From contig JACIXS010000100.1 of assembly GCA_014360335.1 (NCBI GenBank), forward strand, positions 24,431 through 88,430: a DNA stretch of 64,000 nt, in the 5' to 3' direction. The DNA comes from a bacterium (GTDB lineage Bacteria; DUMJ01). Shown here piece by piece: positions 8,117 to 62,868 of the stretch (the stretch's first letter is position 1; the number at the start of each line of letters is the position of its first letter). Position numbers and translations under genes: made by a program. The notes under the pieces are model-generated. The model did not search any database. It was not told where the DNA came from and saw only the letters and a program-made list of their open reading frames with translations.

Positions 8117-8469
8117 TGGTGGAGGCGGCGGGAATCGAACCCGCGTCCGAGAATGAGACGCCAAAAGGCTCCTACAGGATTAGCCTCTGTTTACTTTTCC
8201 TTCTATAGGACCCCAGAGGCAGGGCTATAGAAGTAAGCTCACCTTTAATTTCCTCTTCCCCCTGTGAGCACCGGAGGAAGAGTTAGCCTGCTAGTGTCAG
8301 GCCATTTCCTACCTCGCAGGCTAAGGTAGGAATGACCTCTGCCTATCTAATTAGGCAGCTAGTGCTAACTGATTGTCAGCAGTTATTCTTTTACCGCATT
8401 TTTACGAGCCTGCGGTGACTCGTCCTGCTCCTTTTGACCTCTCCATCCCCGTCGAATCCTTACGCCCCC
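8117..8469 (-). ncRNA. ssrA: tmRNA (SsrA)
   Basis: The minus strand reads 5'-GGGGGCGUAAGGAUUCGACGGGGAU... and ends ...GGACGCGGGUUCGAUUCCCGCCGCCUCCACCA-3'. The acceptor stem has the G3:U pair. An internal tag reading frame GCU GAC AAU CAG UUA GCA CUA GCU GCC UAA encodes ADNQLALAA. Confidence 0.92.
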
Positions 8470-25721: not shown

Positions 25722-27287
25722 TTGAATGGGTATTTTATGCTTGTACTCCATACCCATCTTCCTTTTGTCAAAGGAAAAGGTATGTGGCCCTTTGGGGAGG
25801 AGTGGCTCTATGAGGTTATGTATGGTTCTTACATCCCTTTAGTTAAGATGCTAGAAGAGTTATACGAAGATAGTATAATTCCTAATATTACTGTTAGCAT
25901 AACCCCTGTTCTCCTTTCTCAGCTTATAATGCCTGAATGTATAGATGGGTTTAGAAGATACATAGCTAGAAAGATAGAGCTTATAAATGCTGATAGGAAT
26001 TATTTTAAACATACTCAAGAGACAGAACTATTTAACCTCACATTTTATTATAGAGACCTTTTGGAAGAGAGATTGCGATATTTTGAGGAATCTGGTGGTA
26101 ATTTAGTAAAGAAACTCTCACAATTGGCAAAGAGTGGAGCGATAGAACTTATCACTTCCTCCGCTACACATGCCTATCTACCCCTTTTGAAAAATGAAAG
26201 GTCTATAAGACTTCAGCTAAAAGTGGGTAGAGAGGAGCATGTTAATATTATAGGACTTATACCTTATGGGATGTGGCTGCCGGAGTGTGCCTATAGGCCA
26301 GGGCTTGAGAATCTTATGTCTGAAATGGGTTACAGATTCTCATTTTTTGAAGAACATGCCATTCGCGGGGGTAAGGCTTATAGTCCCTATGGAGAAGATG
26401 TAGAATCTAAGGTGCTCCCTAAAGATTACTCTGTATTTAGGCCTTATCATATAAGAGATTCTAACGTATCTGCTTTTGGAAGGGCTGGAGAGCTATCAGG
26501 ACAGATATGGTCTAAGGATTTGGGATATCCTGGGGAGGCTCTTTATAGAGAATTTCATAAACGTAAGGAAGGCTCTGGATTGCAGTATTGGAGAGTTACT
26601 GGTCCTAATGTTAACCTAGGAGCAAAGGAGCCTTATAATCCAGACCTTGCCTTGAAAAAGGTAAAGGAGCACGCTGGGCATTTCCTCTGGAGGTTGGAGA
26701 GGACGATAGAAAATGCGAATGTAGATAATCCTGTTGTAGTAACTCCGTTTGATACTGAGCTCTTTGGTCACTGGTGGTGGGAAGGGGTTGACTTTATAAA
26801 AGAACTGCTTATAAGGATAAATTCTTCAAATCTAGTAAGAACAATAACTCCTAGTAAATATCTTGCCAGTTTTCCTCCCAGAGAATCTATAGATATACCA
26901 GAGTCAAGCTGGGGAGTTGGTGGAGGACATGAAGTTTGGTATAACGAAAATACAAGGTGGATGTGGGAAAAGATATATGAGGTCGAGAATAAGATAGATA
27001 GAGTTTTCTCCAATAGGGATTTCTCTGGTTGGCAGGAGAGGATAGCAGACCAGATAATGAGAGAATTTTTACTCCTTACTAGCTCCGACTGGGAATTTCT
27101 GATATATACAAAATCGGCTGGAGACTATGGTGAGAAGAGGTTTAATGAGCATTTGACTAACATAAAACTACTTTTTGACCTACTTGAGAAATCGGTTTTA
27201 TCTGGTGAAGACAAAGAGTTTATTATAGACTTAGAGAGACGCCATTCTCTATTTCCAAAACATAAACTATGGTCTCTCTGGAGGTGA
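25722..27287 (+). CDS. GH57-family 1,4-alpha-glucan branching enzyme
   Basis: LVLHTHLPFV N-terminus and about 520 aa, the length and architecture of the Thermus/Thermococcus GH57 branching enzymes. TTG start with GGAGG 8 nt upstream. Confidence 0.78.
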   Translation: MNGYFMLVLHTHLPFVKGKGMWPFGEEWLYEVMYGSYIPLVKMLEELYEDSIIPNITVSITPVLLSQLIMPECIDGFRRYIARKIELINADRNYFKHTQETELFNLTFYYRDLLEERLRYFEESGGNLVKKLSQLAKSGAIELITSSATHAYLPLLKNERSIRLQLKVGREEHVNIIGLIPYGMWLPECAYRPGLENLMSEMGYRFSFFEEHAIRGGKAYSPYGEDVESKVLPKDYSVFRPYHIRDSNVSAFGRAGELSGQIWSKDLGYPGEALYREFHKRKEGSGLQYWRVTGPNVNLGAKEPYNPDLALKKVKEHAGHFLWRLERTIENANVDNPVVVTPFDTELFGHWWWEGVDFIKELLIRINSSNLVRTITPSKYLASFPPRESIDIPESSWGVGGGHEVWYNENTRWMWEKIYEVENKIDRVFSNRDFSGWQERIADQIMREFLLLTSSDWEFLIYTKSAGDYGEKRFNEHLTNIKLLFDLLEKSVLSGEDKEFIIDLERRHSLFPKHKLWSLWR

Positions 27288-27292
27288 ATCTT

Positions 27293-28693
27293 ATGAAAGT
27301 ACTTATTGTAGCTAGTGAGGTAAACCCATTTGTAAAAGTAGGGGGACTAGCAGATGTTGCTGGAGCTTTACCAAAGGCTCTTGCTAATCTGGGTTGCGAG
27401 GTATCTATAGTAATGCCAATGTATAGGCAGATAAATCTAGCTGAGTATGAGGTATATGAGTTTATAAAAACTCTAGATGTTCCGCTTGGGTATGGCAATG
27501 AGACTGCAAGTATAAAGAGAGTTTCCTTATCTAAGGATATACATCTGTACCTAATAGATAATGGCGCATATTTTCAAAGGGAAGCTCTATATAACTTTCC
27601 TGATGATCCTAGACGTTTTATCTTTTTCTCCAAAGCTAGCTTTGAGTTGGCTAAGATTTTAGAGCCAGATATAATTCATTGTAATGATTGGCATACCGCT
27701 TTGGTGCCTGGTTATGTGAAATACTATTGGGATAAAAAACAGGTAGGAACACTTTTTTCGATACATAACTTAGCTTATCAAGGTCTCTGTGAAAGAGATA
27801 TGTTTATATATTCTGGTCTACCTGAGGTTGCATTTAACCCTGAGGGAGTGGAATTCTATGGAAAGTTCAACATTATGAAGTCTGGCATAGTCTATAGTGA
27901 TATGATAAATACAGTTAGTCCTACCTATGCCGAAGAGATTAAGACCCCAGAATTTGGCTGTGGTTTGGATGGATTACTAAGGAGTAGGTCAGACGTCTTG
28001 GTCGGTATATTAAATGGGATAGATGAAGATGAGTTTAATCCTCAGATAGATAGATATCTTCCAGTAAGATTTTCGGTTGATTCTTTAGAGAAGAAAGAGG
28101 AAAATAAAAGATTTTTACTTAGTGAATTAGGTCTTATCTATGATAGAAATATTCCAGTAGTAAGTTTTATAGGTAGGCTTTGGGAGCAGAAGGGTATAGA
28201 TATTATTCTTCAAGCTATACCTGAGCTTATGAGTAGAAATATTTATCTAATAATCTTAGGAACAGGTTCTGAATACTATCACCAAGTATTGAGTCAATTT
28301 AAAGAACAATATCCAGATAAGGTCTCAGTAAATTTAAAATTCGATAATAGACTTGCCCATCTCATATATGGAGGTTCTGATTTTCTATTAATGCCATCTA
28401 GGTTCGAACCTTGCGGTTTAGGACAGATGATAGCTATGAAGTATGGGACTATTCCTATAGTTAGGGGTGTTGGTGGACTGAAAGATACCGTAAGAGAAAA
28501 CGACACAGGTTTTGTATTTTTTGATTACACCTATAACGCCCTAATTGAAAGTGTAGATAGGGCAATCAATCTTTATAATGATAGAGACAGACTTGAGAAG
28601 ATGCGTAAGAGGATTATGTTAGAAGACTATTCTTGGGGTAATTCTGCAAAGAAGTATCTAGATGTTTATGATAGAATACTAAAGAAGAGGTGA
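27293..28693 (+). CDS. glgA: Glycogen (starch) synthase
   Basis: GT5 N-terminus EVNPFVKVGGLADV; GGAGGTG RBS 7 nt before the ATG at 27293. Confidence 0.9.
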   Translation: MKVLIVASEVNPFVKVGGLADVAGALPKALANLGCEVSIVMPMYRQINLAEYEVYEFIKTLDVPLGYGNETASIKRVSLSKDIHLYLIDNGAYFQREALYNFPDDPRRFIFFSKASFELAKILEPDIIHCNDWHTALVPGYVKYYWDKKQVGTLFSIHNLAYQGLCERDMFIYSGLPEVAFNPEGVEFYGKFNIMKSGIVYSDMINTVSPTYAEEIKTPEFGCGLDGLLRSRSDVLVGILNGIDEDEFNPQIDRYLPVRFSVDSLEKKEENKRFLLSELGLIYDRNIPVVSFIGRLWEQKGIDIILQAIPELMSRNIYLIILGTGSEYYHQVLSQFKEQYPDKVSVNLKFDNRLAHLIYGGSDFLLMPSRFEPCGLGQMIAMKYGTIPIVRGVGGLKDTVRENDTGFVFFDYTYNALIESVDRAINLYNDRDRLEKMRKRIMLEDYSWGNSAKKYLDVYDRILKKR

Positions 28694-28702
28694 AAAGACT
28701 AG

Positions 28703-29722
28703 ATGTCAGAACTTAGGAAAGACCCTGTTACTAGGAGATGGGTAATAATAGCTACAGAAAGGGCTAGAAGACCTACTGATTTTGCAAAACCTAAGACGGA
28801 AGAAAAGATTCTACCAGAATATGTAGATAATTGCCCTTTTTGTGAAGGGAATGAGTCCCTTACACCTTCTGAACTTATGGCTTATAGGCATGCTGGAACG
28901 CAAAGAGATGGTAAAGGATGGTGGATAAGGGTAATACCAAATAAGTATTCGGCAGTAAGACCGGATACTCCCTTAGAGAGAAGAGGAATCGGGATGTACG
29001 ATGTGGCTACCGGCTATGGCGCACATGAGATTATAATAGAAAGCCCATACCATAACAGAACTATGGCTAATATGTCTGAGAAGGAGATAGAAGAGGTCCT
29101 CTGGGCTTATAGAGATAGAATCTTAGAGCAGGCAAAGAATCCAGATATCAAATACGCCATAATCTTTAAAAATTATGGACCGGAGGCAGGAGCTTCTCTA
29201 GAACATCCACATTCCCAGCTTATAGCTTTACCTGTAGTGCCCAAGAGGGTCTTAGAAGAGTATGAGGGAGCTAGAGATTACTATGCTTATAAAGAGAGAT
29301 GCCCATACTGTGATATTATTAGACAGGATAAGAGTGATGGGGAAAGGGTGATCTATGAGAATGACCTTTTTATAGCTCTTGCCCCATTTGCCTCTCCATC
29401 TCCATATGAAGTGGATATCTTACCTAAACAACATTCATCTACTTTTGAAAAGATAGGTAAGATAGAAATTATGGAACTTGCTAAGATATTCAAGATTATA
29501 TTCTGGGCTCTCTCAGAAGTCCTTAATGACCCTCCTTACAACTTTATACTACACAATATTCCTTTTAGAGGAAATGGAACAGAATTCTTCCACTGGCATT
29601 TTAATCTTGTTCCAAGAATCACTAAACTTGCAGGTTTTGAATTGGGTTCAGGTTTCTATATTAATCCGGTGAAACCAGAAGATTCTGCCAAAGCTCTAAG
29701 GGATAAGATTAATTCTATGTAG
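28703..29722 (+). CDS. GalT-family (HIT superfamily) hexose-1-phosphate nucleotidyltransferase-like protein
   Basis: CPFCEGNE zinc site and an HPHSQ active-site variant of the GalT H-x-H-x-Q motif; 339 aa. Confidence 0.78.
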   Translation: MSELRKDPVTRRWVIIATERARRPTDFAKPKTEEKILPEYVDNCPFCEGNESLTPSELMAYRHAGTQRDGKGWWIRVIPNKYSAVRPDTPLERRGIGMYDVATGYGAHEIIIESPYHNRTMANMSEKEIEEVLWAYRDRILEQAKNPDIKYAIIFKNYGPEAGASLEHPHSQLIALPVVPKRVLEEYEGARDYYAYKERCPYCDIIRQDKSDGERVIYENDLFIALAPFASPSPYEVDILPKQHSSTFEKIGKIEIMELAKIFKIIFWALSEVLNDPPYNFILHNIPFRGNGTEFFHWHFNLVPRITKLAGFELGSGFYINPVKPEDSAKALRDKINSM

Positions 29723-29733
29723 GGGGCTATAGT

Positions 29734-31353
29734 ATGGTTTCGACACTCTATGTTGCATTGGTCTGGCATCATCATCAACCGACATATAAAGACCCAAAAA
29801 CAGGCAAGTATTTACTTCCATGGACTAGGATGCATGCGGTAAAAGACTATTTCTATATGGCTAATCTCCTTGCCTATTTTCCCGATGTTCATTACACAGC
29901 TAATATAACTCCGGTTCTTATTTCTCAGTTAAATGACTATATCTCTAATTATGCAAGTGATGTATATCTAGAAGTGATAAATAAACCCGTGGAAGAGTTA
30001 ACTGCAGATGAGAAAAGACTCTTGATCGAGTATTCGTTTGTGTTGAATCCTGAGTATTTTATAGAACCGTACCCTAATTTTTACTCCATCTATAAAAGGA
30101 TAAATTCTCTTGGTATAGATAGGGCGGTAGAAGAATTGTCAGATCAAGAACTCCTTGACCTTCAGGTTTGGGGACACTTAGTTTGGTTTGATCCCCATTT
30201 TAAAAAGAATGACCCTGTAATAAGGAGACTAATAGAGGAAGAACACTTTACTGAAAGACATAAGAGGCTTGTGATAAGGAAACAGTTAGAAGTGATGAGT
30301 TTGATCCTACTTAGATATAGTGAACTTTTAGACCTAAATCAGGCTGAGATTATTACATCGCCATTTTATCATCCAATACTTCCTCTTCTTATAGATACTA
30401 ATATCGCTAGTTTAACTGGAATAAGTAGTCTACCAAGATTTAATTTCCAATATCCAGATGATGCAAGACTCCAGATGAAATATGCTATAGACCTATATAC
30501 TTCTACCTTTGGAGGAGTTCCAAATGGTATCTGGCCCTCTGAATTGGCTGTAAGCTATGAGGCGTTAAATATTATTAGTTCCCTCGGTTCTAGGTGGGTA
30601 ATAACCGATGAGGATATCTTGGCTAAGACTTTAGGGAAGAGCCTTAGGGGACCTGAAGATAAGCTATTAAATCCAGAAGTTTTATATAGACCTTACTGGC
30701 TAAAGACCCAAAGTGGAAAGTTGATAGTGGTATTTAGAGATAAGTTTTTATCGAATCTAATAAGTTTTTATTATTACAAAATAGATCCTCAGGATGCAGC
30801 TATAGACCTTATAAAGAGGCTAGAAGAGGTAAGATTCAATCTTCCATCCGGTAAAAAGTACCTTGTAGTTATAGCATTAGATGGAGAAAATTGTTGGAAT
30901 TACTATCCTGAGAATGGCTGGAAGTTCCTTACCTCACTCTATATGAGACTTTCAGAGACTGCAGGCTTAAAGCCTGTGACTATTTCAGAATTTATAGAGT
31001 TAGATGGAAATTTTGAGGTATTGACTACAATCTCTCCTGGCTCTTGGATAAATATGTCTTTTGATACCTGGATAGGTGAGCCTGCTACAAACCTAGCATG
31101 GGACTATCTGTGGCAGGTAAGAAAGGAGTTAGAAGATTCAAAAGAAGAGATCAATAGAGAGACTTATGAATCTGCCTTAAGAGAGTTATTTACTGCGGAA
31201 GGAAGTGACTGGTTTTGGTGGTACAATAGTCATCATAGAGTAAAAGAGGAGTGTATATTTGACAAGCTTTTTAGAGCCCATCTTAGGGAGGTGTATATTA
31301 AACTTAATAAGCCTGTTCCACGGTTTATTGATGAACCAATTAAGAAGTCTTAA
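29734..31353 (+). CDS. GH57-family alpha-amylase / 4-alpha-glucanotransferase-like enzyme (AmyC-like)
   Basis: VWHHHQP...DYFYM GH57 N-terminal signature; about 540 aa. Confidence 0.78.
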   Translation: MVSTLYVALVWHHHQPTYKDPKTGKYLLPWTRMHAVKDYFYMANLLAYFPDVHYTANITPVLISQLNDYISNYASDVYLEVINKPVEELTADEKRLLIEYSFVLNPEYFIEPYPNFYSIYKRINSLGIDRAVEELSDQELLDLQVWGHLVWFDPHFKKNDPVIRRLIEEEHFTERHKRLVIRKQLEVMSLILLRYSELLDLNQAEIITSPFYHPILPLLIDTNIASLTGISSLPRFNFQYPDDARLQMKYAIDLYTSTFGGVPNGIWPSELAVSYEALNIISSLGSRWVITDEDILAKTLGKSLRGPEDKLLNPEVLYRPYWLKTQSGKLIVVFRDKFLSNLISFYYYKIDPQDAAIDLIKRLEEVRFNLPSGKKYLVVIALDGENCWNYYPENGWKFLTSLYMRLSETAGLKPVTISEFIELDGNFEVLTTISPGSWINMSFDTWIGEPATNLAWDYLWQVRKELEDSKEEINRETYESALRELFTAEGSDWFWWYNSHHRVKEECIFDKLFRAHLREVYIKLNKPVPRFIDEPIKKS

Positions 31354-31380
31354 GAATAAAGTTTTAGGAGGTGAAGTTTT

Positions 31381-32916
31381 ATGGTTAAGAAATTTTTCAA
31401 TAAGTTAACAGTAACTTTAATGCTGGTCCTGTTTCTTTTATCTCTAATTCCCTCTCTGTCATTTTCTGCTGATACGTTTAGTATTACTATCCTCCATACA
31501 AACGACACCCATGCTCATTTAGAGGAAATTGCCCGTAGGGTTACTCTTATAAGACAGGTTCAAAAGGAGGTAGGTAAGGATAAGGTTCTTCTCTTAGATG
31601 CTGGTGATGTATTTTCAGGAACACCTTATTTTACCATCTATAAAGGTTCTGCTGATGTAAGATTTATGAATTATGCAGGTTATACCGCTATGACACTTGG
31701 AAATCATGAGTTTGATGTGGGACCTAATGTTTTGGCAAGATTTATAGAGAAGGCTAAGTTCCCTATCTTATGTGCCAATTTTGATTTCTCTAAAGAGGAG
31801 GCATTAAAAGATAAGGTGAAAAGCTGGGTAATAGTAGAGAAGGGGGGAGAAAAACTCGGTATCTTTGGTTTGACTACGCCTGAAACTGCAGAGATATCTA
31901 GCCCTGGTAAGAACATAGTCATTAATGACTATGTAGAGATTGCGAAAGCAATGGTAAAAGAATTAGAGTCTAGAGGAATAAATAAAATCATAGCCCTTAC
32001 GCACATAGGATGGGATAATGATGTGAAGTTGGCAAAAGAGGTCGAAGGGATCGATATTATTGTTGGTGGACATTCTCATACACTACCCAAGTCTTATCCA
32101 ACAGTAGTCGCTGATGATAGTACCCCTACTTTAATTGTTCAGGCTAACGAATATGGTAAATACCTTGGACGTCTAGATGTTGTTTTTAATAATACTGGTG
32201 TTATCCAGAGCTGGAAAGGGAATCTAATAACTATTGACAATAAGATTGAAGAAGAATCTCTCTGCAAGATTAAGATTGAGGATTATAAAAAGCCTGTTAC
32301 AAAGATGATGAATGCGGTAGTAGGAGAATCACTGGTTGACCTTGATGGAGATAGAAGTAGAGTAAGGTCTCAGGAGACAAATCTAGCTAATCTTATTACT
32401 GATGCGATGTTAGCTAAGGCAAAGGTTGTAAATGCAGTTATTGCTATTCAAAATGGTGGAGGGATAAGAGCATCTATTCCAAAAGGTAAGGTAACTCTTG
32501 GGCAGATTATGACTGTCCTACCCTTTGGAAATTATCTAGTTGCACTAGACCTTACTGGCCAGCAGATTATAGAGGCGTTAGAAAATGGTGTAAGTCAGGT
32601 AAAAGATTTAGCTGGTAGATTTCCGCAGGTATCTGGTTTGAGGTTTGTTTGGGATTCAAGTGCAGAGATTGGAAAGCGAATCGTTAGTGTAGAAGTAAAG
32701 AATCCAGATGGAACATATCAACCAATCGATCCTTCTAAGACTTATAGAATAGTAACCAATAACTTCTTGGCACAGGGTGGAGATGGTTATACTGTCTTTC
32801 AGAAAGGAACTAACTTTATAAATCTTGGTTTTGTAGATTATGAAGTCTTAAGAGAGTACATTCAGAATAATTCTCCGGTTAATCCACAGATAGAAGGGCG
32901 CATCATTAAGAAGTAA
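31381..32916 (+). CDS. Secreted bifunctional metallophosphatase / 5'-nucleotidase (UshA family)
   Basis: Signal peptide, the calcineurin-like metal motifs (ILHTNDTHAH, GNHEFD), and a C-terminal 5'-nucleotidase domain. Confidence 0.85.
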   Translation: MVKKFFNKLTVTLMLVLFLLSLIPSLSFSADTFSITILHTNDTHAHLEEIARRVTLIRQVQKEVGKDKVLLLDAGDVFSGTPYFTIYKGSADVRFMNYAGYTAMTLGNHEFDVGPNVLARFIEKAKFPILCANFDFSKEEALKDKVKSWVIVEKGGEKLGIFGLTTPETAEISSPGKNIVINDYVEIAKAMVKELESRGINKIIALTHIGWDNDVKLAKEVEGIDIIVGGHSHTLPKSYPTVVADDSTPTLIVQANEYGKYLGRLDVVFNNTGVIQSWKGNLITIDNKIEEESLCKIKIEDYKKPVTKMMNAVVGESLVDLDGDRSRVRSQETNLANLITDAMLAKAKVVNAVIAIQNGGGIRASIPKGKVTLGQIMTVLPFGNYLVALDLTGQQIIEALENGVSQVKDLAGRFPQVSGLRFVWDSSAEIGKRIVSVEVKNPDGTYQPIDPSKTYRIVTNNFLAQGGDGYTVFQKGTNFINLGFVDYEVLREYIQNNSPVNPQIEGRIIKK

Positions 32917-32922
32917 AAGTTA

Positions 32923-32952
32923 GGGGCTCTAATAGAGCCCCTTTATTATTTT
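32923..32952. terminator. GGGGCTCT/AGAGCCCC hairpin followed by a T-run, between two convergent genes
   Basis: Seen directly in the sequence. Confidence 0.55.
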
Positions 32953-33952
32953 AAACCATTTTTATGCCATCACTCTTTAAGAAGTCTATAATCTCATCTA
33001 CATAGCCAAAGGCAAGACAGACTACAGTGTCTGCTCCTCCATAGTATATAGCTATTCTTCCTGTTTGAGAATCACACAATGCAGCACAGGGAAATACAAC
33101 ATTCGGGACATCTCCCACACATTCGTATAACTCTTGAGGTGAAAGTAGATAACTTCTAGACCGATATTTTACTATCCAAGGTTTCTCATTATCTAATAAA
33201 GCACAGCCAAAGCTATATACATATCCATTACAGGATAGTAATACTCCATGATATATGAGTAGCCAACCTTCGCTTGTCTCTATGGGAGTTGGTCCAGCCC
33301 CTATCTTAAGTGATTGCCAAGAGGAGTATTGGTGCCCTGCAGACATTACAAATCTGTGACAGCCCCAATGAATCATATCTAGACTTTCACTATAGAATAT
33401 ATCGCCAAAGGGTGTGTGTCCTCTATCTGAGGGTCTACTTAACATTGCATATTTCCCATTAATCTTTCTTGGAAAAAGTACACCATTCCTATTGTAAGGG
33501 AGAAATGCATTTTCTATCTGATAGAACTTCTCAAAATCGAAAGTGTAACCCAACCCAATAGTAGGTCCATAGTATCCATTACACCAAGTGATATAGTATC
33601 TATCCTCTAACCAGGTTACTCTAGGATCATACTTATACATACTTACTAGAGGGTCTCTCGTTTCTTGAATGAAATCTATCGGTTCCTCACTAAGAGTCCA
33701 ATTAATTCCATCATCACTAAATCCGCTGTGAATATTCATAGCCCTGCTCTTATCATCCACCCTGAATACTCCAGCGAATCTATCTTTAAACTTTACCACT
33801 GCACTGTTAAATATGCTGTTTGCTCTTTTAATATGGTTCCTCTTTATAATAGGGTTCTTTGAGTATCTCCATATGACATCTTTACAGCCAGCTGGTCTTT
33901 CCTCCCATGGCATATTAGGGATAGACTCAGTATAGATTGTTATCTTGCCCAT
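32951..33952 (-). CDS. GH130-family glycoside phosphorylase (beta-mannoside phosphorylase-like)
   Basis: Roughly 330-aa five-bladed-propeller glycosidase. The family assignment is from overall similarity recalled for GH130 proteins. Confidence 0.65.
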
Positions 33953-34125
33953 ATCTGACCTCCTAAAGTATGTAGTTTATCTATATTATAACCTACAAAA
34001 TGTCCTATTTTTAACGATAGATTTTACCGGAAATTCCTCATATTTTAGTTAAAAATTTACTTCAGAAATAACCCAAAAACCTCATCGGAGTAGCGGTCTC
34101 TACTGCTTTGGATCTAATGCCTTCC

Positions 34126-34144
34126 ATAATAATGATAATTCGTA
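34126..34144. promoter_or_regulatory. Candidate Fur-box-like element (AATAATGATAATTCGTAAA)
   Basis: Its first two hexamers match the GATAATGATAAT core of the Fur consensus. It lies in the 408-nt divergent intergenic region upstream of the ferritin-like/VIT1 iron-handling gene. Confidence 0.25.
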
Positions 34145-34360
34145 AATTCTTTAGTCTATAGTTTATCATATCTACCTGTCGTTGCGAGCGATAGCGAAGC
34201 AATCTAATAATTTTATTCCATTCAGAAGTTCATAGAACTTCCCATATAGATCCAGGCACTTTTCAGACTAGGGGAAAAGGAAAGGGTAGAAAAGTGATAT
34301 AGACACGTACAGAATGTAGGTTATAGTATAATATTCTCTAAAAAGGAGGTTTTACTAACT

Positions 34361-35209
34361 ATGGAGCTTATAGAACTACAGAGAAATGAGATAACGGAAC
34401 ATCTAATTTATAGTCATTTGATAAGAGATGCTAAGGATCAGCACAATAGAGAAGTTCTAAATAGATTGGCTCGAGAGGAGTATGGTCATTATGAGAGGTT
34501 AAAGAAGATTACTGGAAGAGATGTTTCTCCGAATAGAATTAAGGTATGGTTTTATCTTTTTGTAATAAAGATTTTTGGGATTACGTTTGGGTTGAAGTTG
34601 ATGGAATCTGGAGAGGAGATGGCTCAAAAGAGTTATAATAATATTGCTCAAAAGTATCCTGAAGTGAATAGTATTATTGGAGATGAAAAGGCTCATGAGA
34701 AAGAACTTTTAGATATCTTAGATGAAGAAAGACTAAAATATGTTGGTTCTATAGTTTTAGGTCTGAGTGATGCGCTAGTTGAATTTACAGGAGCCTTAGC
34801 AGGCTTTACCTTTGCGTTGAGAAACACTTCTCTTATAGCTCTCACCGGCATTATTACAGGTATCTCTGCTTCGCTATCTATGGGTGCTTCAGAGTATCTC
34901 TCTACTAAAGCTGAAGGTGGAGATAGAAATCCTTTGGTTGCATCTCTTATCACCGGTATGACATATATATTTGCTGTATTTTTCTTAATTCTGCCATATG
35001 TTTTACTTAAAAACTGCCTTTTTGCCTTTGGTTTTACCCTATTATTCGCTGTAATTCTTGTCCTATTCTTTACCTTTTATATATCAGTGGCAAGGGACCT
35101 TGAATTTAAAAAGAGATTCTTAGAGATGATAGCTATTATATTTGGAGTATCTATCGTTTCTTTTGGCATTGGTCTTTTGGTAAGGGTATTTTTTAATATA
35201 GAGATTTAG
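34361..35209 (+). CDS. Ferritin-like (rubrerythrin-type) domain fused to a VIT1/CCC1 iron/manganese transporter domain
   Basis: N-terminal di-iron helix motifs (E..H pairs in REEYGHYERL and EKAHEKEL). The C-terminal half has the VIT1 hydrophobic core (LGLSDALVEFTGALAG...). Confidence 0.8.
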   Translation: MELIELQRNEITEHLIYSHLIRDAKDQHNREVLNRLAREEYGHYERLKKITGRDVSPNRIKVWFYLFVIKIFGITFGLKLMESGEEMAQKSYNNIAQKYPEVNSIIGDEKAHEKELLDILDEERLKYVGSIVLGLSDALVEFTGALAGFTFALRNTSLIALTGIITGISASLSMGASEYLSTKAEGGDRNPLVASLITGMTYIFAVFFLILPYVLLKNCLFAFGFTLLFAVILVLFFTFYISVARDLEFKKRFLEMIAIIFGVSIVSFGIGLLVRVFFNIEI

Positions 35210-38383: not shown

Positions 38384-38394
38384 GTAAAAGCTGT

Positions 38395-38575
38395 GAAGAG
38401 GAGTAGTAGCCATTTAAGGTGAACTCGCCTCAGAGCTGGATAGGTGAAATAGTAGTAGCTTATCCCGGGAATTCCCGTTATAGAATAGAGAGTGGGCTTA
38501 AAAGCCAATTAGGGTGGTACCGCGGAAAGCTTTCCGTCCCTAGCAGTTTGCTGTGGAGGGAAAGCTTTTTTATAA
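38395..38575 (+). promoter_or_regulatory. T-box riboswitch leader, with its intrinsic terminator spanning roughly 38526-38571
   Basis: Canonical T-box sequence AATTAGGGTGGTACCGCGG at 38507-38525. It is immediately followed by a terminator stem AAAGCUUUCC...GGAAAGCUUU plus UUUUUU whose 5' arm overlaps the T-box, which is the antiterminator/terminator alternation. A possible CUC (Leu) specifier lies in a GAACUCGCC context. Confidence 0.8.
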
Positions 38576-51317: not shown

Positions 51318-53288
51318 TTACCTGAATATTATACCAAATACTAGCGCAATTATAGACATAAGCTTTATCAAGATATTCATAGAGGGACCTGCGGTATCCT
51401 TAAACGGATCACCAACAGTATCTCCAATTACAGCTGCTGCATGAGTGGGTGTTCCCTTACCACCTAAATTCCCAGCTTCGATGTACTTCTTAGCGTTATC
51501 CCAAGCACCACCGCTATTTGCCATCATAATAGCTAATGCTACCCCTGTCAATATAGCACCAAGTAGAAAACCTCCTACAGCTTCTTTACCCAACACTAGT
51601 CCTATAATAATGGGGGCAACAACCGCTGTAATGCTAGGAGCTAGCATCTCTCTTAAAGCTCCTTTAGTGGCTATGTCTACGCAACGTGCATACTCTGCTC
51701 TTGCCTTTCCTTCCATTAGCCCCTTAATCTCTCTAAATTGCCTCCTTACTTCTTCTACTATCAGATTAGCGGTTCTACCTACTGCTTCCATAGCAAATGC
51801 AGAGAACATAAATGGCATTAAGGCTCCTATAAATGCTCCTATTAGAGACTTAACAGAGAGGATATTCACTATACTTAGACCTACAGTATGTGTATAGGCA
51901 CTGAATAGGGCAAGAGCGGTTAATGCTGCAGAACCAATAGCAAAACCCTTCCCTATGGCAGCAGTGGTATTCCCTAGAGCATCTAGTCTATCTGTTATCT
52001 TACGAATATTAGCTCCAAGTCCAGCCATCTCAGCTATACCACCTGCATTATCTGCTATTGGTCCATAGGCATCTGTTGACATCACTATGCCTATAGTGGC
52101 TAACATTCCAACTCCGGCTATAGCTACACCATAGAGTCCATTCAGAGCCCAAGATATACCAATAGCACCTGCAATCATTATTACTGGCACTATGATGCTC
52201 TTCATTCCAAGGGCAAGTCCCCTTATAATAACCGTACCAGCACCGGTCTGTGCACTTTCAGCTAGAGATACTATAGGTTTACCAGATGTATAATACTCAG
52301 AGACAAGACCAATAATTATCCCCACTATAAGCCCAGCCAATAATGCAAAGAGTGGATTATAGGTATTTAGTAGGGATTTTGTTAAAGGTATAGCTACTAT
52401 TACTAAAATGATCGCAGATACATAGGTTCCCCATCTAAGAGCAGATTGGGGGTCTCCTTTCCCAAATAACTGTACATAGAAAGATCCAATTATAGATGCT
52501 ACGGTTCCTACAGCTATAAGGATAAGAGGATATAGGATTGCATTTAGGGATAACTCTTTAGAGAATGCAGTAAGTCCTATTACCATAGCAGCAATAACAG
52601 CTCCTACGTATGATTCAAAGAGGTCTGCACCCATCCCTGCAACGTCTCCAACGTTATCTCCTACGTTATCCGCTATGACACCCGCATTTCTTGGGTCATC
52701 CTCAGGTATATTCTTCTCTACTTTACCTACTAAGTCTGAGCCAACATCAGCGCTTTTTGTATATATACCTCCTCCTACACGGGCAAATAGAGCTACTGAG
52801 CTAGCACCCATTCCAAATGCATTTATAACGTTAGGGTCTTTAAAGATTAGGTAGGCTATAGAAAGACCAAATACCCCAAGACCTGCAACTGCAAGCCCCA
52901 TTACAGAGCCACCAGTGAAGGCAACTCTCAAAGCTTGAGACTGACCCTTCTTTGCTGCTTCTGTAGTCCTTACATTGGCTCTAGTAGCAGCTTGCATACC
53001 AAACCATCCTGCAAATATAGAAGATATACTACCCATAACGTATGCGATAGCACTGTACGGATTGATAAATATGGCTATTACAGCAGTCATAACGATAATA
53101 AAGTATACAAGAGTCAGATACTCCCTCTTTAAAAATGCTACTGCTCCTTCGTGTATAGCGGATGCTATCTCCCGCATTCTCTCTGTTCCAGCTGGTTGCT
53201 TTGATACCCAGGTATAGAAATAATATGCGAGCAGTAGCGTCCCACCTCCTATGATTGTAGAAAGCGTTAATAAGGTATTACTGCTCAT
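51318..53288 (-). CDS. hppA: Membrane-bound proton-translocating pyrophosphatase (V-type H+-PPase)
   Basis: Multiple PPase acidic motifs ([26 protein letters not shown]) and about 16 transmembrane helices. The ATG at 53288 (MSSNTLL...) is preferred because a GGAGGAAGGAG RBS sits 8 nt upstream; the ORF-track start at 53309 falls inside that RBS. Confidence 0.9.
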
Positions 53289-53308
53289 ATACGTCACTCC
53301 TTCCTCCA

Positions 53309-53869
53309 CTAGGATTTTATAGAATTAATTTTTTGCTTTTGTTTATGTCTTTTCTCTAACTCCCTGTATACATCTTGAGGAGTCAGCTTTAAATTTGCTA
53401 GTAAGACCAATATGTGATAGAAAAGGTCAGAGACTTCATATATCACCTCACCACGATCCTCTTTCATTCCTGCCAGAAGGACCTCTACTATCTCTTCCCC
53501 TATCTTTTTAAGTATCTTTTCTTTACCCTCTTTAAAGAGTTGAGATGTATAAGAACCTTCGGTAGGGTTAAGTTTTCTGGATAGGATGATTTCGTAAAGG
53601 GTATCCAGATTAAATCTAGTATAGTCTTCTTTAGAATACAACTCTTGGAAAAAGCATGATAGATGTCCTGTATGGCAGGCTACTCCCCTTTGTTCTACTA
53701 GTACAAGTAATGCATCATTATCGCAATCCAATCTAATCTCTTTTACCTTTTGTATATTGCCACTAGTTTCCCCCTTATTCCATAACTTTTGCCTCTCTCT
53801 ACTCCAAAACCAAGTAGTCCCTGTTTCTATTGTCCTTCTCAGAGACTCCTCATTCATATAACCCAACAT
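53309..53869 (-). CDS. hisIE: Bifunctional phosphoribosyl-AMP cyclohydrolase / phosphoribosyl-ATP pyrophosphatase
   Basis: HisI motifs ([27 protein letters not shown]) and a HisE C-terminus. The conserved HisI N-terminal segment continues in frame upstream of this ATG without a canonical start codon (see findings). Confidence 0.85.
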
Positions 53870-56672: not shown

Positions 56673-57815
56673 TTAGCAAGATTTAAGTGCCTTTATTAAG
56701 CTACCAATCTGATAAGAAATCCATTCCAACTGTTCTTTAGTGCGCCTTATTGATTCTTCTAAGGTTATAGGGCCTCTAGTAACTGAGAATAGGGCGTCTG
56801 CCAATCCCTCCTCTATTAGAATTTCAGCATCTTCGTCTACAGCTCCACCTAATAGTATCACAGGTATAGCCTTCTCTTTAGCCTTTTTAGCTATTCCCGC
56901 TGGACCCTTCCCAAATATTGTTTGTCCATCTATCTTTCCTTCACCACTTATAACTATGTCTACTCCTTCTAATTTTCTCTCTATATCTAAAGTCTCTAAA
57001 ACAACTTCAATTCCAGGCTTTAGCTTGGCATTTAAAAAGGCAACTAGTCCTCCTCCTAATCCTCCAGCCGCTCCTGCTCCTGGAAGGTTCAATATATCCT
57101 TACCCAAGTCTCTTTTAACCACTTGAGCAAAATTAAATAATGCCCTATCTAATTCTTCTATTAACTCTTTGGTTCCACCCTTCTGTGGACCATAAACATA
57201 AGAAGCTCCTTCAGGTCCACATAGGGGATTTTTTACATCCGCCATTACTATAACTTCACACTCTTTTGCCAAAGGATGAAAATTACTCATATCAATAGTG
57301 TGAAGTTCTTTAAGTGCCAGTCCACCAAAGGGTAACTCTCTACCCTCTTTATCTAATAGCCTTGCTCCTAAAGCCTGTGACATTCCTGCACCGCCGTCAT
57401 TAGTAGCACTTCCACCTATTCCCACTAGTATTCTCTTTACTCCTCTATCTAATGCTTCCCTTATGAGTTCACCAACACCATAGGTAGTAGTAATAGCAGG
57501 GTTTCTTTTTTCTTTCGGAACTAAGGCTAAACCAGAAGCCCTTGCCATTTCTATAACAGCAGTCTTACCGTCACCTAGAATGCCAAACTTTGCTATTATT
57601 CTTTCTCCTAGAGGACCGGTTACCTCTTTTTCTATAAACTGTCCATTGGTAGCCTCTACTAAGACCTCAATTGTCCCATCCCCACCATCTGCTATTGGTA
57701 GAACGATAATATCACTATTAGGGAGGGCTTTTAAGAGCCCTCCCTTTATAGCCTCTCCAGCCTCTCTGGCGGAAAGAGCTTCCTTAAATGCGTTAGGAGC
57801 CACCAGTATCTTCAT
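56673..57815 (-). CDS. glxK: Glycerate kinase (GK-I / GlxK family)
   Basis: [12 protein letters not shown]...IADGGDGT N-terminus typical of the glycerate kinase family; 380 aa. Confidence 0.85.
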
Positions 57816-58795
57816 TTTTTCAACACTTCCGGATTTACCGGATTGGGTGGCATCTTTCCTGCTAATACCGCTAGGAGATTCTCTGCAGCCATCGTAGCCA
57901 TCTTGGTCCTTGTCTCTACACTTGCACTGGCTATATGAGGTAGTAGAACTGCATTCTCACATTCTGCTAATCCTGGGACAAGCTTAGGCTCAAACTCATA
58001 GACATCCAATCCTGCTCCTGCTATCCACCCTTCTTTTAGAGCCTTTACTAATGCATTTTCATCTACTACTGGTCCCCTTGAAGTGTTTATAAGATAAGCG
58101 GTCTTTTTCATCTTCTTTAGTCTCTCTTCATTTATCAGGTGATAAGTCTCAGGAGATAGATAGGTATGAAGTGAGACAAAATCGCTCTGCTCTAGAAGCT
58201 CATCTAAAGAGACAAATGTGGCATTTAATTCTTTTTCAAGTTCTTCAGGTATTCTCCTTATATCATTGTATAGGACCTTCATATTGAAACCTTTTGCTCT
58301 TCTTGCTACAGCCTGTCCAATCCTTCCCATGCCTATGATACCTAGTGTCTTTCCATAAACATCCTGCCCAAGAAAGAGCATAGGAGCCCAGCCTTCATAC
58401 TTTCCTGCTCTCGTAAACTTATCCGCTTCTACTACTCTTCTAGCGGTAGCTAAAATAAGAGCCCATGCCAAGTCTGCTGTAGTCTCAGTAAGAACCCCTG
58501 GGGTATTTGTTACTACTATACCTCTTTTAGTTGCCTCATTTACATCTATATTGTCATAACCTACCGCATAATTACTTACAACCTTTAACTGGGGCCCAGC
58601 AGCATCAAACACTTCCGCATCTATCTTATCTGTTAAGAGACAGAGTATGCCATCCTTGCCCTTTACTGCTTGAAGTAACTCCTCTCTTGTTAATACCCTA
58701 TCGTATGGATTTATCTCTACCTCATGCTCCTTTCTTATCATTTCTATTCCGGGCTCTGGAATACGCCTGGTTATATAAACCTTCAATGTATACAC
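57812..58795 (-). CDS. D-isomer-specific 2-hydroxyacid dehydrogenase (glyoxylate/hydroxypyruvate reductase type)
   Basis: NAD-binding GxGxxG ([12 protein letters not shown]) and the catalytic R/E/H arrangement; 327 aa. Confidence 0.85.
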
Positions 58796-58798
58796 CTC

Positions 58799-60145
58799 CT
58801 AGCTTAGTAAAAATCCTGATGATGATATTATATCACCTAAACCTACTGTAAGCTTTGGTGACTGAACTACCTTGGTAGGAACTATTACAAGGCTGAAATT
58901 GTCTATATTCTTAATACCTTCGTACCCAGTTAATGTTATAGTTGGAACTCCTAAGCCTTTCTCTAAGTCTTCTAATGTCTCGTATCTGCCAAGTAGAGAC
59001 CTTGTGGCAGCTAAGATAGCAGAGAATAGAAGAGCGGTTCTCTCATTTCGCTCATTCTTTTCCCTAGTAATAGATATATAATGCCCAAGAGTGTGAAGTT
59101 GAATCCTCTTAAGAGGAGTCCTTTCCATAATCTTTAGCAAACCATCCACCAATTTTACTATAGGGAATCTTGTGTCTTTAAGTTCTTTTGCTAAATCTTG
59201 CTCTCCAAAATCACTAAGCAGTGTGGCAAATTCAATCTCGTTTAATCCGAGACTATCTATAACGGGGAATATATGCTTTACCACTAGACTTCTTATCAGA
59301 GAACTTCCGATAGAGGCAAATTCATAGTGGACCTTTAAACCTAATCTTTCTTTCATCTGGCTTACGAATTCGGCAACTGGAACTATAAAGTCTTCGCAGG
59401 TTTTACCCTCAGGATACCTTTCTAAAAGAATATGAAAGCCTGATACTAAGAAGTGTGTAAATTTATCTGGTATGAGGAATATATCTCTTTTAAACTCTTC
59501 ACTTACCCTTAATCTACAATTTACAGGATTCCAAGCTGCTATGAACCTATTGGCTCTTGGAGATTCATAGGTTGTTCCATCGAGCTCTATCTTTAATCCT
59601 TTATTGTATTCTAATATCCAGTGTATAGCAAATATCCCCTGGTCCTTCCATGCTTTTCTAGGAGAACGGAGTACTGGTTTATCATTCTCTCTAGTTAAAA
59701 CAAAGAGATTTTTTCTTTCAGGGAAGAGTTCAGCAAGTTCTTTGGTTAATGGATTTGCATATACTAGAATCTTTGAGAGTGGTAAAGGGGACAATAGACT
59801 AGCCATATTTGCCGAAGTTCCGCCAAGCCTCAATTGGTCATATCCAATGTTTTCTAAGGTCCATCTAAAGGTCTCTTCATTCTCTATCATCCTCTGATAG
59901 GCTAAACCTTCTCTTATGGAGATAAGGAGGTCAACAAGTAAGTCCTCTGGACTCCTTATAACCGATGTTGGTTCACTAGGAATACTTTTAATATGTGGAA
60001 ATTGCTCTAGAAGCCTCTTTAAGAGGTCTTCTTCTACTCTCTTTAATCCATCTATCGTTGAATGAAATCCAGTTATTACACCTGGAATCCTCTGTAGTTT
60101 TTTCCAGCCCTCCTCTAAAGCCTCTCTATACAGTTCTTCCCACAT
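58799..60145 (-). CDS. ADP-dependent sugar kinase family protein (archaeal ADP-glucokinase / ADP-phosphofructokinase family)
   Basis: Collinear blocks with Thermococcus/Pyrococcus ADP-GK/PFK as recalled: WEELY...GFHSTIDGL (archaeal WKRLY...AYNTNIDAI), LRLGGTSANMA, PRANRFIA, LGLNEIEFA, RIQLHTLGHY, ALLFSAILAA, and the C-terminal IVPTKVVQSPKLTVGLGDIISSSGF (archaeal [25 protein letters not shown]). Confidence 0.8.
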   Translation of the reverse strand: MWEELYREALEEGWKKLQRIPGVITGFHSTIDGLKRVEEDLLKRLLEQFPHIKSIPSEPTSVIRSPEDLLVDLLISIREGLAYQRMIENEETFRWTLENIGYDQLRLGGTSANMASLLSPLPLSKILVYANPLTKELAELFPERKNLFVLTRENDKPVLRSPRKAWKDQGIFAIHWILEYNKGLKIELDGTTYESPRANRFIAAWNPVNCRLRVSEEFKRDIFLIPDKFTHFLVSGFHILLERYPEGKTCEDFIVPVAEFVSQMKERLGLKVHYEFASIGSSLIRSLVVKHIFPVIDSLGLNEIEFATLLSDFGEQDLAKELKDTRFPIVKLVDGLLKIMERTPLKRIQLHTLGHYISITREKNERNERTALLFSAILAATRSLLGRYETLEDLEKGLGVPTITLTGYEGIKNIDNFSLVIVPTKVVQSPKLTVGLGDIISSSGFLLS

Positions 60146-60995
60146 TGTCTAAAGCCTCCTTGTACGCCTCTTCGGAAGAATAGTTCTTGTGTAGTATAAG
60201 TTTCATAGCTAAAGCCATAACCTCAGGTTTATCACTTAGGAATACATTTCTACCAACCACGAAACCACTAGCTCCAGCCTTTACGCCATCTTCGAAGTCT
60301 CTAAGGACATCTAAAGGATTTTCTCTCTTTGGACCTCCTAAAAGTAGTACCTTAGCATTTACACTATCTATTATCCTCTTAAATAGTTCTATACCCTCTT
60401 CCCTGGAGTTACTCTTTACATAGGGGATTTTAAGTATCGGCACCCTAAAGTCGTTAGTTATTATAGAGACCCACTTTATAGCCTCATAAGACCTATCCAT
60501 AACCAACTTTCCATCCTCTAGATTCATATAGAGGGGTTCTACCATAAGAGGCATAGACCATTTCTCGCACTCTTCTACCACATTAGCTAGAAGTGTTAAC
60601 TGCTCATTAGTAAACTGATTATTCTTATTGAACTTTATTAGAAGTTTTACTCCATCTAGTCCCCATCTAAGAGCGGTTTCTACCGTACAAACACATCTAT
60701 CATCCATCTCAAAAGTTGTTCCAGCTAGCCCAGTTCTATTAAGGCTTAATACTAATCCTTTATCTCTTAGGTTACCATTGACTATAAGTTGAGCTAAAGG
60801 CTCTTTTGTGGTCATTATAGCATCCAGATAGGGGGCTAATCTTTCTATGAGAGAAACCAAATTAGCAAAGTTATCTATCCCTTCTTGAATGCCTCGCTGT
60901 CTATGGTCTATAGCTAGAACCATGGACTTTCCATCTTTTGCAAAGATCCGAGACATCCTATTGGTTATTCCTACATCATAAAAAAGTGACTCCAT
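60126..60995 (-). CDS. Archaeal-type class I fructose-bisphosphate aldolase family (DeoC/FbaB-like) aldolase
   Basis: RIFAKDGKSMVLAIDH (Schiff-base aldolase N-terminal block) and C-terminal GASGFVVGRNVF, as in class IA FBA and ADH synthase. Confidence 0.78.
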   Translation of the reverse strand: MESLFYDVGITNRMSRIFAKDGKSMVLAIDHRQRGIQEGIDNFANLVSLIERLAPYLDAIMTTKEPLAQLIVNGNLRDKGLVLSLNRTGLAGTTFEMDDRCVCTVETALRWGLDGVKLLIKFNKNNQFTNEQLTLLANVVEECEKWSMPLMVEPLYMNLEDGKLVMDRSYEAIKWVSIITNDFRVPILKIPYVKSNSREEGIELFKRIIDSVNAKVLLLGGPKRENPLDVLRDFEDGVKAGASGFVVGRNVFLSDKPEVMALAMKLILHKNYSSEEAYKEALDNVGRTV

Positions 60996-61006
60996 CGAAT
61001 TCCTCC

Positions 61007-62029: not shown

Positions 62030-62033
62030 ATTA

Positions 62034-62855: not shown

Positions 62856-62868
62856 CTTTTTTCCCTCC

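Follow-up and report, generated by a model that had tools for sequence, protein, structure and literature searches.

A GalT-like protein, most likely of the ADP-glucose phosphorylase branch, recurs beside glycogen synthase in bacterial GH57-based glycogen operons

The 64,000-nucleotide stretch of bacterial DNA analysed here (the window: GenBank assembly GCA_014360335.1, contig JACIXS010000100.1, positions 24,431 to 88,430 of the forward strand, GTDB lineage DUMJ01) carries an alpha-glucan (glycogen) operon built on two enzymes of glycoside hydrolase family 57 (GH57) and the glycogen synthase GlgA, in which a gene for a GalT-family nucleotidyltransferase follows glgA. The sequence of this GalT-like protein places it most likely in the branch represented by At5g18200, an ADP-glucose phosphorylase from plants, rather than among the galactose-1-phosphate uridylyltransferases of the Leloir pathway (GalT), and its homologues lie next to glgA in loci assigned to about a dozen phyla, with a fusion of the two in another phylum. 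Taken as a whole, we read the system as one in which an ADP-glucose phosphorylase of the At5g18200 type partners GlgA and, alongside a pyrophosphorylase, mainly drains or recycles ADP-glucose, and we regard this reading as reasonably probable, if far from secure.

Plants have been known to possess ADP-glucose phosphorylase activity since the 1960s; the gene followed in 2006, but, to our knowledge, no physiological role for the enzyme has been accepted. That a bacterial homologue is a regular partner of glycogen synthase makes such a role directly testable in bacteria, and it also marks the name 'galT' as a probable and widespread misannotation. The proteins of the operon all fall in known families, and glycogen gene sets based on GH57 enzymes have precedents; the partnership of an At5g18200-type protein with glycogen synthase is what is undescribed in the literature searched, where no paper was found to connect glycogen operons with a GalT-like or ADP-glucose phosphorylase gene of bacteria. 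A 2024 Chem Rev review of prokaryotic alpha-glucan enzymes likewise makes no mention of GalT or galactose-1-phosphate uridylyltransferase. The locus in the window is one ordinary member of this widespread, uncharacterised variant of the glycogen operon.

Architecture of the operon

A first-pass annotation, made from the letters alone, had described an alpha-glucan cluster of five genes on two GH57 enzymes and GlgA, and all five open reading frames (ORFs) were found where it had placed them, on the + strand and spanning 25722-32916, with Pfam, TIGR and PDB matches that agree with that description. The features are:

25722..27287, + strand: GH57 glycogen branching enzyme, 521 aa (Pfam GH57 and BE_C; PDB phmmer)
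27269..28693 (ORF), + strand: GlgA, GT5 glycogen synthase of the ADP-glucose type (TIGR02095, NF001899, Pfam)
28703..29722, + strand: GalT/HIT-family nucleotidyltransferase, most likely of At5g18200 type (Pfam GalP_UDP_transf, N-terminal, with GalP_UDP_tr_C and HIT)
29734..31353, + strand: predicted cytoplasmic GH57 enzyme related to AaApu, the GH57 amylopullulanase of Aquifex aeolicus (Pfam GH57, E 3e-56; PDB matches)
31381..32916, + strand: predicted secreted UshA-like 5'-nucleotidase / nucleotide-sugar hydrolase (Metallophos and 5_nucleotid_C; signal peptide)
32922..32942, no strand assigned: bidirectional intrinsic terminator that ends the operon and a convergent GH130 gene (hairpin and T-run)

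Gaps of 5-27 nt separate the genes and each of the five has a ribosome-binding site (Shine-Dalgarno sequence) upstream. A terminator scan found none on the + strand within the cluster; the strong one at 32922-32942, directly after the last stop codon, has a 3-nt loop closed by a 9-bp stem, six of whose pairs are GC, and on the + strand it runs on into TTATTATTTT. The promoter scan was uninformative, with 43 sites against the 43.9 expected by chance, and transcription of the cluster may read through from the genes upstream, which are a housekeeping run (rpsB-tsf-pyrH-frr-uppS-cdsA-dxr-rseP-ispG-proS), a glycolipid synthase gene and then cobA. Four of the five genes are probably conserved members of the GH57-based glycogen operon, with the 5'-nucleotidase gene outside the conserved module.

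Placement of the GalT-like protein

Among PDB sequences searched with phmmer, the GalT-like protein matches At5g18200 (entries 1z84 and 2h39) with 251 bits (E 2e-73, 40% identity over 320 residues), compared with 150 bits (E 1e-42, 32% identity) for the GalT of Pyrobaculum and 101 bits (E 6e-28, 24% identity) for that of E. coli, which bears out the family assignment of the first-pass annotation, where At5g18200 had been given as an example of the family. Its zinc ligands (C44-P-F-C47 and H108), its nucleophile motif (H168-P-H170-S-Q172) and the further sites C200-P-Y-C203 and H297-W-H299 can be read directly from the alignment, in which the Cys/His sites and the HxHxQ motif coincide with those of At5g18200 and are invariant in 18 homologues. 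The second CxxC site (C200/C203) is present in At5g18200 and absent from E. coli GalT; with GalT the window protein shares the sugar-binding K...GFE segment. The window protein thus has in common with At5g18200 the two-HIT-domain GalT fold, the HxHxQ nucleophile, the CxxC/His/His zinc site and the second CxxC; what differs is the setting, as the plant protein is cytosolic and has no operon context whereas the bacterial gene sits in a glycogen operon, adjacent or fused to glgA.

The fold comparison points the same way. An AlphaFold2 model of the GalT-like protein, of moderate quality (pLDDT 67.6, with active-site loops below 50) and used at the level of the fold only, retrieved At5g18200 chains as its top six Foldseek matches (E 5e-20 to 4e-18, TM-score ~0.65-0.71), among them the ADP-glucose complex 2h39. 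Structures of At5g18200 are available as 1z84, 1zwj and 2h39, and a moderate score is to be expected for an obligate intertwined dimer.

The automatic label is less informative. The model TIGR00209 (galT_1, cutoff 102 bits) is passed by the window protein (134 bits), by Pyrobaculum GalT (110), by At5g18200 (107) and by E. coli GalT (594), and because At5g18200 is among them the 'galT' label carries no information on specificity; for the stricter equivalog NF008724 the window protein falls well below the cutoff (149 vs 448 bits). At5g18200 acts phosphorolytically, with a Km of 7 µM for ADP-glucose (PMC4136846), and has been reported to be an ADP-glucose phosphorylase and not a GalT (PMC6329318). 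A prediction of nucleotide specificity at the level of single residues was dropped, as the position of Asp78, which contacts uridine in the E. coli enzyme, does not discriminate: the window protein, At5g18200 and Pyrobaculum GalT all have K, L or R there.

The family to which the protein belongs comprises ~2,350 clusters (50% identity) at E<=1e-30. Two of its members, P0241 (871 aa) and P0242 (599 aa), contain two or three GalT-like stretches, which represent tandem or partial duplications, and one of these also matches Ap4A_phos_N.

Association with glycogen synthase across phyla

A pattern scan of one genome per species gave 595 relatives, and the gene context was read, with 10-kb flanks, in the best 80 of the 595 and in four further loci from exact-protein look-ups, making 84 loci in all (L numbers below are our own). 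In 34 of the 84 (30 of 66 when only loci with both flanks are counted), glgA lies on the same strand no more than 300 bp from the GalT-like gene, which comes first in 24 loci and second in 10. The adjacent pairs span about a dozen phylum labels: they were found at all sampled loci of the Thermotogota (5/5), Bacillota (3/3), Planctomycetota including Brocadia (4/4) and Nitrospirota (2/2), and also occur in Nitrospinota, Thermodesulfobacteriota, Binatota, Elusimicrobiota, Gemmatimonadota, Atribacterota and others. GH57 enzymes of three kinds, AaApu-like, 4-alpha-glucanotransferase-like and branching enzyme, join the pair in some loci, and one recurring operon has the order GH57 (Apu-like), GH57 (4-alpha-glucanotransferase-like), GalT-like gene, glgA and a histidine kinase gene. 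A GT35 phosphorylase was found at none of the 84 loci.

Close relatives help to delimit the module. A 92% relative (L084, GCA_026418035.1) has the same layout as the window, GH57 branching enzyme, glgA, GalT-like gene, GH57 and 5'-nucleotidase with a convergent GH130 gene, while a syntenic locus with an 82% relative (L081, JGI 3300029625), which also has frr ... proS, the glycolipid synthase gene and cobA, runs glgA, GalT-like gene and GH57 and then bioY, with neither the GH57 branching enzyme nor the 5'-nucleotidase gene there. Because L081 keeps just those genes, we take the conserved core to be glgA and the GalT-like gene, with or without the following GH57 gene. At all five Thermotogota loci the pair, in the order glgA then GalT-like gene, stands behind a gene for a CBS/ACT protein; in that phylum the GH57 genes lie outside the glgA-GalT-like operon, whereas in the lineage of the window the branching enzyme and AaApu-like genes flank the pair. 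The corresponding glgA-galT pair of Thermotoga maritima is presumably TM0895-TM0896, and a separate canonical galT presumably lies next to galK in this species.

That the two enzymes act together, on the ADP-glucose/ADP pair that they share, is best supported by an 814-aa protein in which residues 2-437 form a complete GT5 glycogen synthase and residues 478-810 a GalT-like protein, with all catalytic motifs intact in both halves. Its 90% cluster has 19 members, named as Coprothermobacterota; at least nine full-length copies were found in data from JGI, NCBI, ENA and Logan, on contigs as long as 85 kb. Two independent contigs carry the ORF without a break, and the fusion is genuine, of the Rosetta-stone kind.

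Two other neighbourhoods recur. In at least 18 loci from several phyla (among them L005, L006, L021, L032, L053, L057, L071, L080 and loci of Acidobacteriota and 'Deltaproteobacteria'), loci without glgA included, the gene immediately after the GalT-like gene, or after the GalT-like-glgA pair, encodes a histidine kinase, often with a response regulator gene beside it; the kinase may be a dedicated regulator. At four loci from Clostridia, Elusimicrobia and unclassified metagenome-assembled genomes (MAGs; L018, L025, L029 and L049), scpA-scpB lie upstream of GalT-like-glgA, and on the downstream side there is a conserved set of genes for a DUF5693 protein, for a polysaccharide pyruvyl transferase and, at a greater distance, for a Peptidase_M23 protein.

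Co-occurrence with pyrophosphorylases

The first-pass annotation had seen the GalT-like gene as standing where glgC, the gene for ADP-glucose pyrophosphorylase, would be expected, in a cluster lacking the GH13 branching enzyme GlgB, GlgC and the GT35 phosphorylase GlgP. The absences hold for the whole window: among its 46 substantial ORFs, all scanned with Pfam, there is no GlgC-type nucleotidyltransferase, GT35 phosphorylase, GH13 protein, GalK, GalE or phosphoglucomutase, and tblastn of the 64 kb with an E. coli GlgC query (a sequence validated at 992 bits against PDB 5l6s) and a GT35 core probe gave no match.

The idea of a substitution fared less well, as elsewhere the same module shares its operon with a pyrophosphorylase. 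An operon glgC-GH57-GH57-GalT-like, whose glgC product is 42% identical to E. coli GlgC and has NTP_transferase and LbH_GLGC domains, is found in a Bdellovibrio MAG (L044), and the same arrangement followed by glgA in a Nitrospinota MAG (L050). In other loci the pyrophosphorylase is a fusion of ~800-850 aa that joins NTP_transferase, LbH and phosphoglucomutase/phosphomannomutase (PGM) domains. It follows glgA in two MAGs, one of Atribacterota (L056) and one unclassified (L062), and in the Coprothermobacterota (L085) it lies 6 kb from the GlgA::GalT-like gene:

L056, 12434-14824: NTP_transferase-LbH-PGM fusion
L062, 12360-14903: NTP_transferase-LbH-PGM fusion
L085, 1601-4099: NTP_transferase-LbH-PGM fusion

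From its domains the fusion is a candidate bifunctional enzyme that would convert glucose-6-phosphate to glucose-1-phosphate and then to NDP-glucose. All 42 sequenced Thermotogae, moreover, carry ADP-glucose pyrophosphorylase and a GH57 branching enzyme (PMC6629080). Because the module co-occurs with glgC or with the NTP_transferase-PGM fusion, and because the Thermotogae have ADP-glucose pyrophosphorylase, a general replacement of GlgC by the GalT-like protein is not supported.

A proposed role in draining ADP-glucose

Gene content, operon structure, family placement, catalytic motifs, adjacency across phyla, the fusion and the co-occurrence with pyrophosphorylases are direct observations; the substrate specificity, the in vivo direction and the physiological role of the GalT-like enzyme we infer as follows. 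GlgA would use ADP-glucose to extend alpha-1,4 chains, alpha-1,6 branches would be added by the GH57 branching enzyme, and the AaApu-like GH57 enzyme would trim or debranch the product. The GalT-like enzyme, by way of an adenylyl-His170 intermediate, would catalyse ADP-glucose + Pi ↔ ADP + glucose-1-phosphate, where Pi is inorganic phosphate. In this it would follow At5g18200, for which McCoy et al. in 2006 reportedly described an adenylyl-enzyme at His186 and an equilibrium constant (Keq) of 5-40 towards ADP + glucose-1-phosphate. As a dedicated partner of GlgA it would link the synthase step to the cellular glucose-1-phosphate/Pi pool, because both enzymes share the ADP-glucose/ADP pair, and because cellular Pi is far above glucose-1-phosphate and the equilibrium favours ADP + glucose-1-phosphate, net flux would run mainly to glucose-1-phosphate. 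ADP-glucose could in this way be removed without loss of a phosphoanhydride bond, glucose-1-phosphate and ADP both being conserved, and synthesis would be shut off at high Pi. Of the 'supplier or recycler' of NDP-glucose that the first-pass annotation had suggested, it is the recycler that fits better, as the equilibrium of the plant enzyme favours breakdown of ADP-glucose and the Thermotogae have their own pyrophosphorylase.

Comparison with known systems makes the proposal more concrete. The ADP-sugar pyrophosphatase AspP of E. coli would likewise withdraw ADP-glucose from the synthase; it hydrolyses ADP-glucose to AMP and glucose-1-phosphate, whereas phosphorolysis keeps ADP, and the GalT-like protein is related to it in neither sequence nor fold. 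The classical glycogen operon glgB-glgX-glgC-glgA-glgP has the same GT5 GlgA of the ADP-glucose type together with branching and degradative or debranching activities; here these are supplied by GH57 enzymes instead of GH13 enzymes, glgC and glgP are found neither in the cluster nor in the window, and a gene resembling that of ADP-glucose phosphorylase is added.

It is tempting to speculate further that, were ADP-glucose held low enough, GlgA could run backwards, in which case GlgA and the GalT-like protein would form a two-enzyme, ADP-cycling equivalent of glycogen phosphorylase, an extension of the proposal that we put forward as a conjecture and think unlikely to hold. The GalT-like enzyme would keep ADP-glucose micromolar while glucan + ADP gave ADP-glucose, so that the net reaction would be glucan + Pi → glucose-1-phosphate with catalytic ADP; a pyrophosphorylase, by raising ADP-glucose, would let the same synthase build glycogen. 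The sum of the GlgA and ADP-glucose phosphorylase reactions, glucan(n) + Pi ↔ glucan(n-1) + glucose-1-phosphate, is the reaction of GlgP (GT35), although the proposed route needs two enzymes and catalytic ADP and the GalT-like protein has no relationship to GlgP in sequence or fold. Reversal would explain the adjacency and the fusion, the company of GH57 enzymes of debranching and 4-alpha-glucanotransferase type (compare GlgX, MalQ and GlgP), and the lack of GT35 in the 84 loci. A rough calculation from the Keq of 5-40 and a phosphorylase equilibrium of ~3.5 gives a constant of ~17-140 for GlgA, so that the thermodynamics would allow reversal; the corresponding equilibrium ADP-glucose, again roughly, would be ~4-30 µM at 0.5 mM ADP, in the same range as the 7 µM Km of the plant enzyme. 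If coupled reversal is true, glycogen would have a new mobilisation route and the ADP-glucose pool a new point of control.

Several observations weigh against a phosphorylase that drains ADP-glucose. An identity of 40% to the sole characterised ADP-glucose phosphorylase leaves nucleotide and acceptor specificity unfixed, the 32%-identical Pyrobaculum enzyme having been deposited and cited as a uridylyltransferase/GalT; the structural model, at its moderate pLDDT, is uninformative on the ligand; and the literature search found no assay of any enzyme of the bacterial branch. In about half of the related loci the GalT-like gene has no glycogen gene as a neighbour, adjacency being found at 0/18 loci in Acidobacteriota and 0/4 in Methylomirabilota. 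Neither the window nor the 10 kb around the gene in its closest relatives (L081, L082/L083 and L084) contains a glgC. Finally, fusion with GlgA is commoner for consecutive steps than for an antagonist, and a role in supply would fit it too.

The last two points lead to the alternative that the enzyme runs in the other direction, making ADP-glucose and Pi from ADP and glucose-1-phosphate and so feeding GlgA independently of GlgC, with ADP regenerated and no ATP consumed. The reaction is reversible in principle, and a closed ADP/ADP-glucose cycle between two active sites would account well for the fusion and the tight adjacency. We nevertheless hold this to be improbable. Against it stand the pyrophosphorylases that accompany the module in L044, L050, L056, L062 and L085, and those of all the Thermotogae (PMC6629080). 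As GlgA and ADP-glucose phosphorylase together amount to the glycogen phosphorylase reaction, synthesis without ATP would need a glucose-1-phosphate/Pi ratio above ~0.3. At an assumed 0.5 mM ADP, 0.05 mM glucose-1-phosphate and 10 mM Pi, and with the same Keq of 5-40, ADP-glucose would equilibrate at ~0.06-0.5 µM, which is far below typical synthase Km values.

Only a little less probable than feeding, to our minds, is that the protein is a HIT nucleotidyltransferase of another specificity: a UDP- or GDP-glucose phosphorylase, an enzyme of exchange between NDP-glucose pools, or a phosphorylase of Ap4A type. The superfamily does shift its specificity at 30-40% identity, as the pairing of At5g18200 (ADP-glucose) with the Pyrobaculum enzyme (UDP-hexoses) illustrates; the pyrophosphorylase of L056, L062 and L085 is the NTP_transferase-PGM fusion and not a classical GlgC; and some family members also match the Ap4A_phos_N model. 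Against this stand the partner GlgA, which scores as an ADP-glucose enzyme, and the nearest characterised relative, which by a wide margin is one as well.

That the gene encodes a genuine Leloir galactose-1-phosphate uridylyltransferase which lies in a sugar-polymer operon by chance seems very unlikely, even though databases call its homologues galT, it passes TIGR00209, its K...GFE segment is shared with GalT, and at L062 the same strand carries, ~5-10 kb upstream, galK together with a melibiase-like and a GH1 gene. At5g18200 passes the same model, the stricter NF008724 is missed and identity to E. coli GalT is down at 24%, and the surroundings also argue for something else. Nearby gal genes, which the first-pass annotation had said would tell against its reading, were found nowhere in the 64 kb, galM included; galK occurs at one of the 84 loci (L062, ~9 kb from the GalT-like gene), and the 84 loci contain no convincing GalE, only two weak partial matches with 24-30% identity. 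The conserved partner is glgA, to the point of fusion. Least credible of all is the absence of any functional link, with adjacency a matter of inherited synteny and the GalT-like protein a housekeeping enzyme apart from glycogen: the lack of a glycogen neighbour in about half of the sampled loci, and a histidine kinase and response regulator that keep it company with and without glgA, would suit this, but the GalT-like gene and glgA are neighbours, in either order, in about a dozen phyla, are fused in another, and share operons with genes for GH57 glycogen enzymes and with glgC.

The GH57 enzymes, GlgA and the 5'-nucleotidase

The first gene (25722-27287), which starts at a TTG codon, 8 nt downstream of the ribosome-binding site AAGGAGG, encodes a GH57 branching enzyme with a BE_C domain (Pfam GH57, E 2e-44; BE_C, E 9e-19), to which branching activity is assigned by homology. 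In phmmer it scores highest, at 349-370 bits, against GH57 branching enzymes of the PDB (5wu7, 3n8t and 1ufa), with AmyC of T. maritima (2b5d) below them at 252 bits, and the GH57 regions can be recognised as HTHLP (residue 10), WLPE (185, with the predicted nucleophile Glu), FDTELFGHWW (343, with the predicted acid/base Asp) and SSDW (454). In its BE_C domain and its catalytic Glu and Asp regions it resembles the enzymes of Thermus thermophilus (1ufa/3p0b), Thermococcus kodakarensis (3n8t) and Pyrococcus horikoshii (5wu7); it differs from the known GH57 branching enzymes in falling below the cutoffs of the lineage-specific NCBIfam equivalogs (445 vs 1000 bits). No signal peptide is predicted.

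GlgA consists of the Pfam domains Glyco_transf_5 and Glycos_transf_1 and passes both TIGR02095, 'ADP-glucose type' (563 bits, cutoff 328), and NF001899 (467 bits, cutoff 459). As called mechanically, its ORF has 19 nt in common with the branching-enzyme gene; translation probably begins at the ATG at 27293, which gives a protein of 466 aa, since a GGAGG overlaps the upstream TGA stop codon and the alignment to the hidden Markov model begins at residue 9.

For the second GH57 enzyme (29734-31353), three entries for AaApu (8zyi, 9iht and 9jlq, 253-257 bits) are the only PDB sequence matches. The conserved regions of AaApu and its catalytic Glu and Asp have been described (PMC12106739), and counterparts are present as HHHQP (12), WPSE (267), DGENCW (383) and EGSDW (489); all five conserved regions are shared with AaApu (8zyi), than which the window protein is longer by 62 residues. 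The window protein is of the catalytic-domain-only type; homologues in other phyla are ~720 aa long, with an extra C-terminal region. With no signal peptide predicted, we propose that it is an intracellular endo-acting hydrolase of alpha-1,4 and alpha-1,6 glucan linkages that would trim or debranch glycogen. Of the earlier label 'amylase/glucanotransferase' the second half does not fit, the enzyme being best read as a degradative, AaApu-like GH57 protein; an AmyC-like enzyme or a glucanotransferase was ruled out, as the AaApu entries alone match.

The 5'-nucleotidase gene looks co-transcribed with the second GH57 gene, from which it is separated by 27 nt and with which it shares the terminator. 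Its product has an N-terminal signal peptide, MVKKFFNKLTVTLMLVLFLLSLIPSLSFS/AD, ending SFS/AD, and matches the UshA and NadN families, in both cases below the cutoff. The gene occurs in the window and in the 92% relative L084 only, being absent from the syntenic L081 and from the remaining loci, and it is probably a lineage-specific passenger for the scavenging of extracellular nucleotides. A part as an integral recycler of nucleotide sugars was ruled out on two grounds, that the protein is secreted and that L081 lacks it.

Other features of the window

The gene that converges on the operon terminator (32951-33952, - strand) resembles those of GH130 beta-mannoside phosphorylases. A 400-bp non-coding stretch (33953-34360), in which Rfam makes no call, separates it from a gene for a rubrerythrin-VIT1 fusion (34361-35209). 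A membrane H+-translocating pyrophosphatase is encoded at 51318-53309 (- strand, 872 bits), and is of relevance here because a cycle of GlgC and ADP-glucose phosphorylase would have the net reaction ATP + Pi → ADP + pyrophosphate. ADP-dependent sugar kinases are unusual in bacteria, and a gene of this kind, of the ADP_PFK_GK family, is found at 58799-60145 (- strand) inside an operon (56673-63666, - strand) of sugar- or inositol-like catabolic character; neighbouring genes encode a glycerate kinase, a 2-hydroxyacid dehydrogenase, a DeoC/Cgl0159-like aldolase, a xylose-isomerase-like TIM barrel protein and an oxidoreductase of the GFO_IDH_MocA type.

The host represents a deep lineage, since the identity of its ProS drops from ~76% straight to ~55% outside its own small group and since the GTDB representative genomes, one per species, include no close relative, the best match to the GalT-like protein being 59% identical. 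Some of its synteny is Firmicutes-like. Two RNA features were identified in the window: a tmRNA gene at 8117-8469 (- strand, 211 bits) and, at 38384-38544 (+ strand, 107 bits), a T-box leader upstream of an ilvD-ilvB-ilvN-ilvC-leuA operon, which suggests a Firmicutes-like regulatory repertoire in the host lineage.

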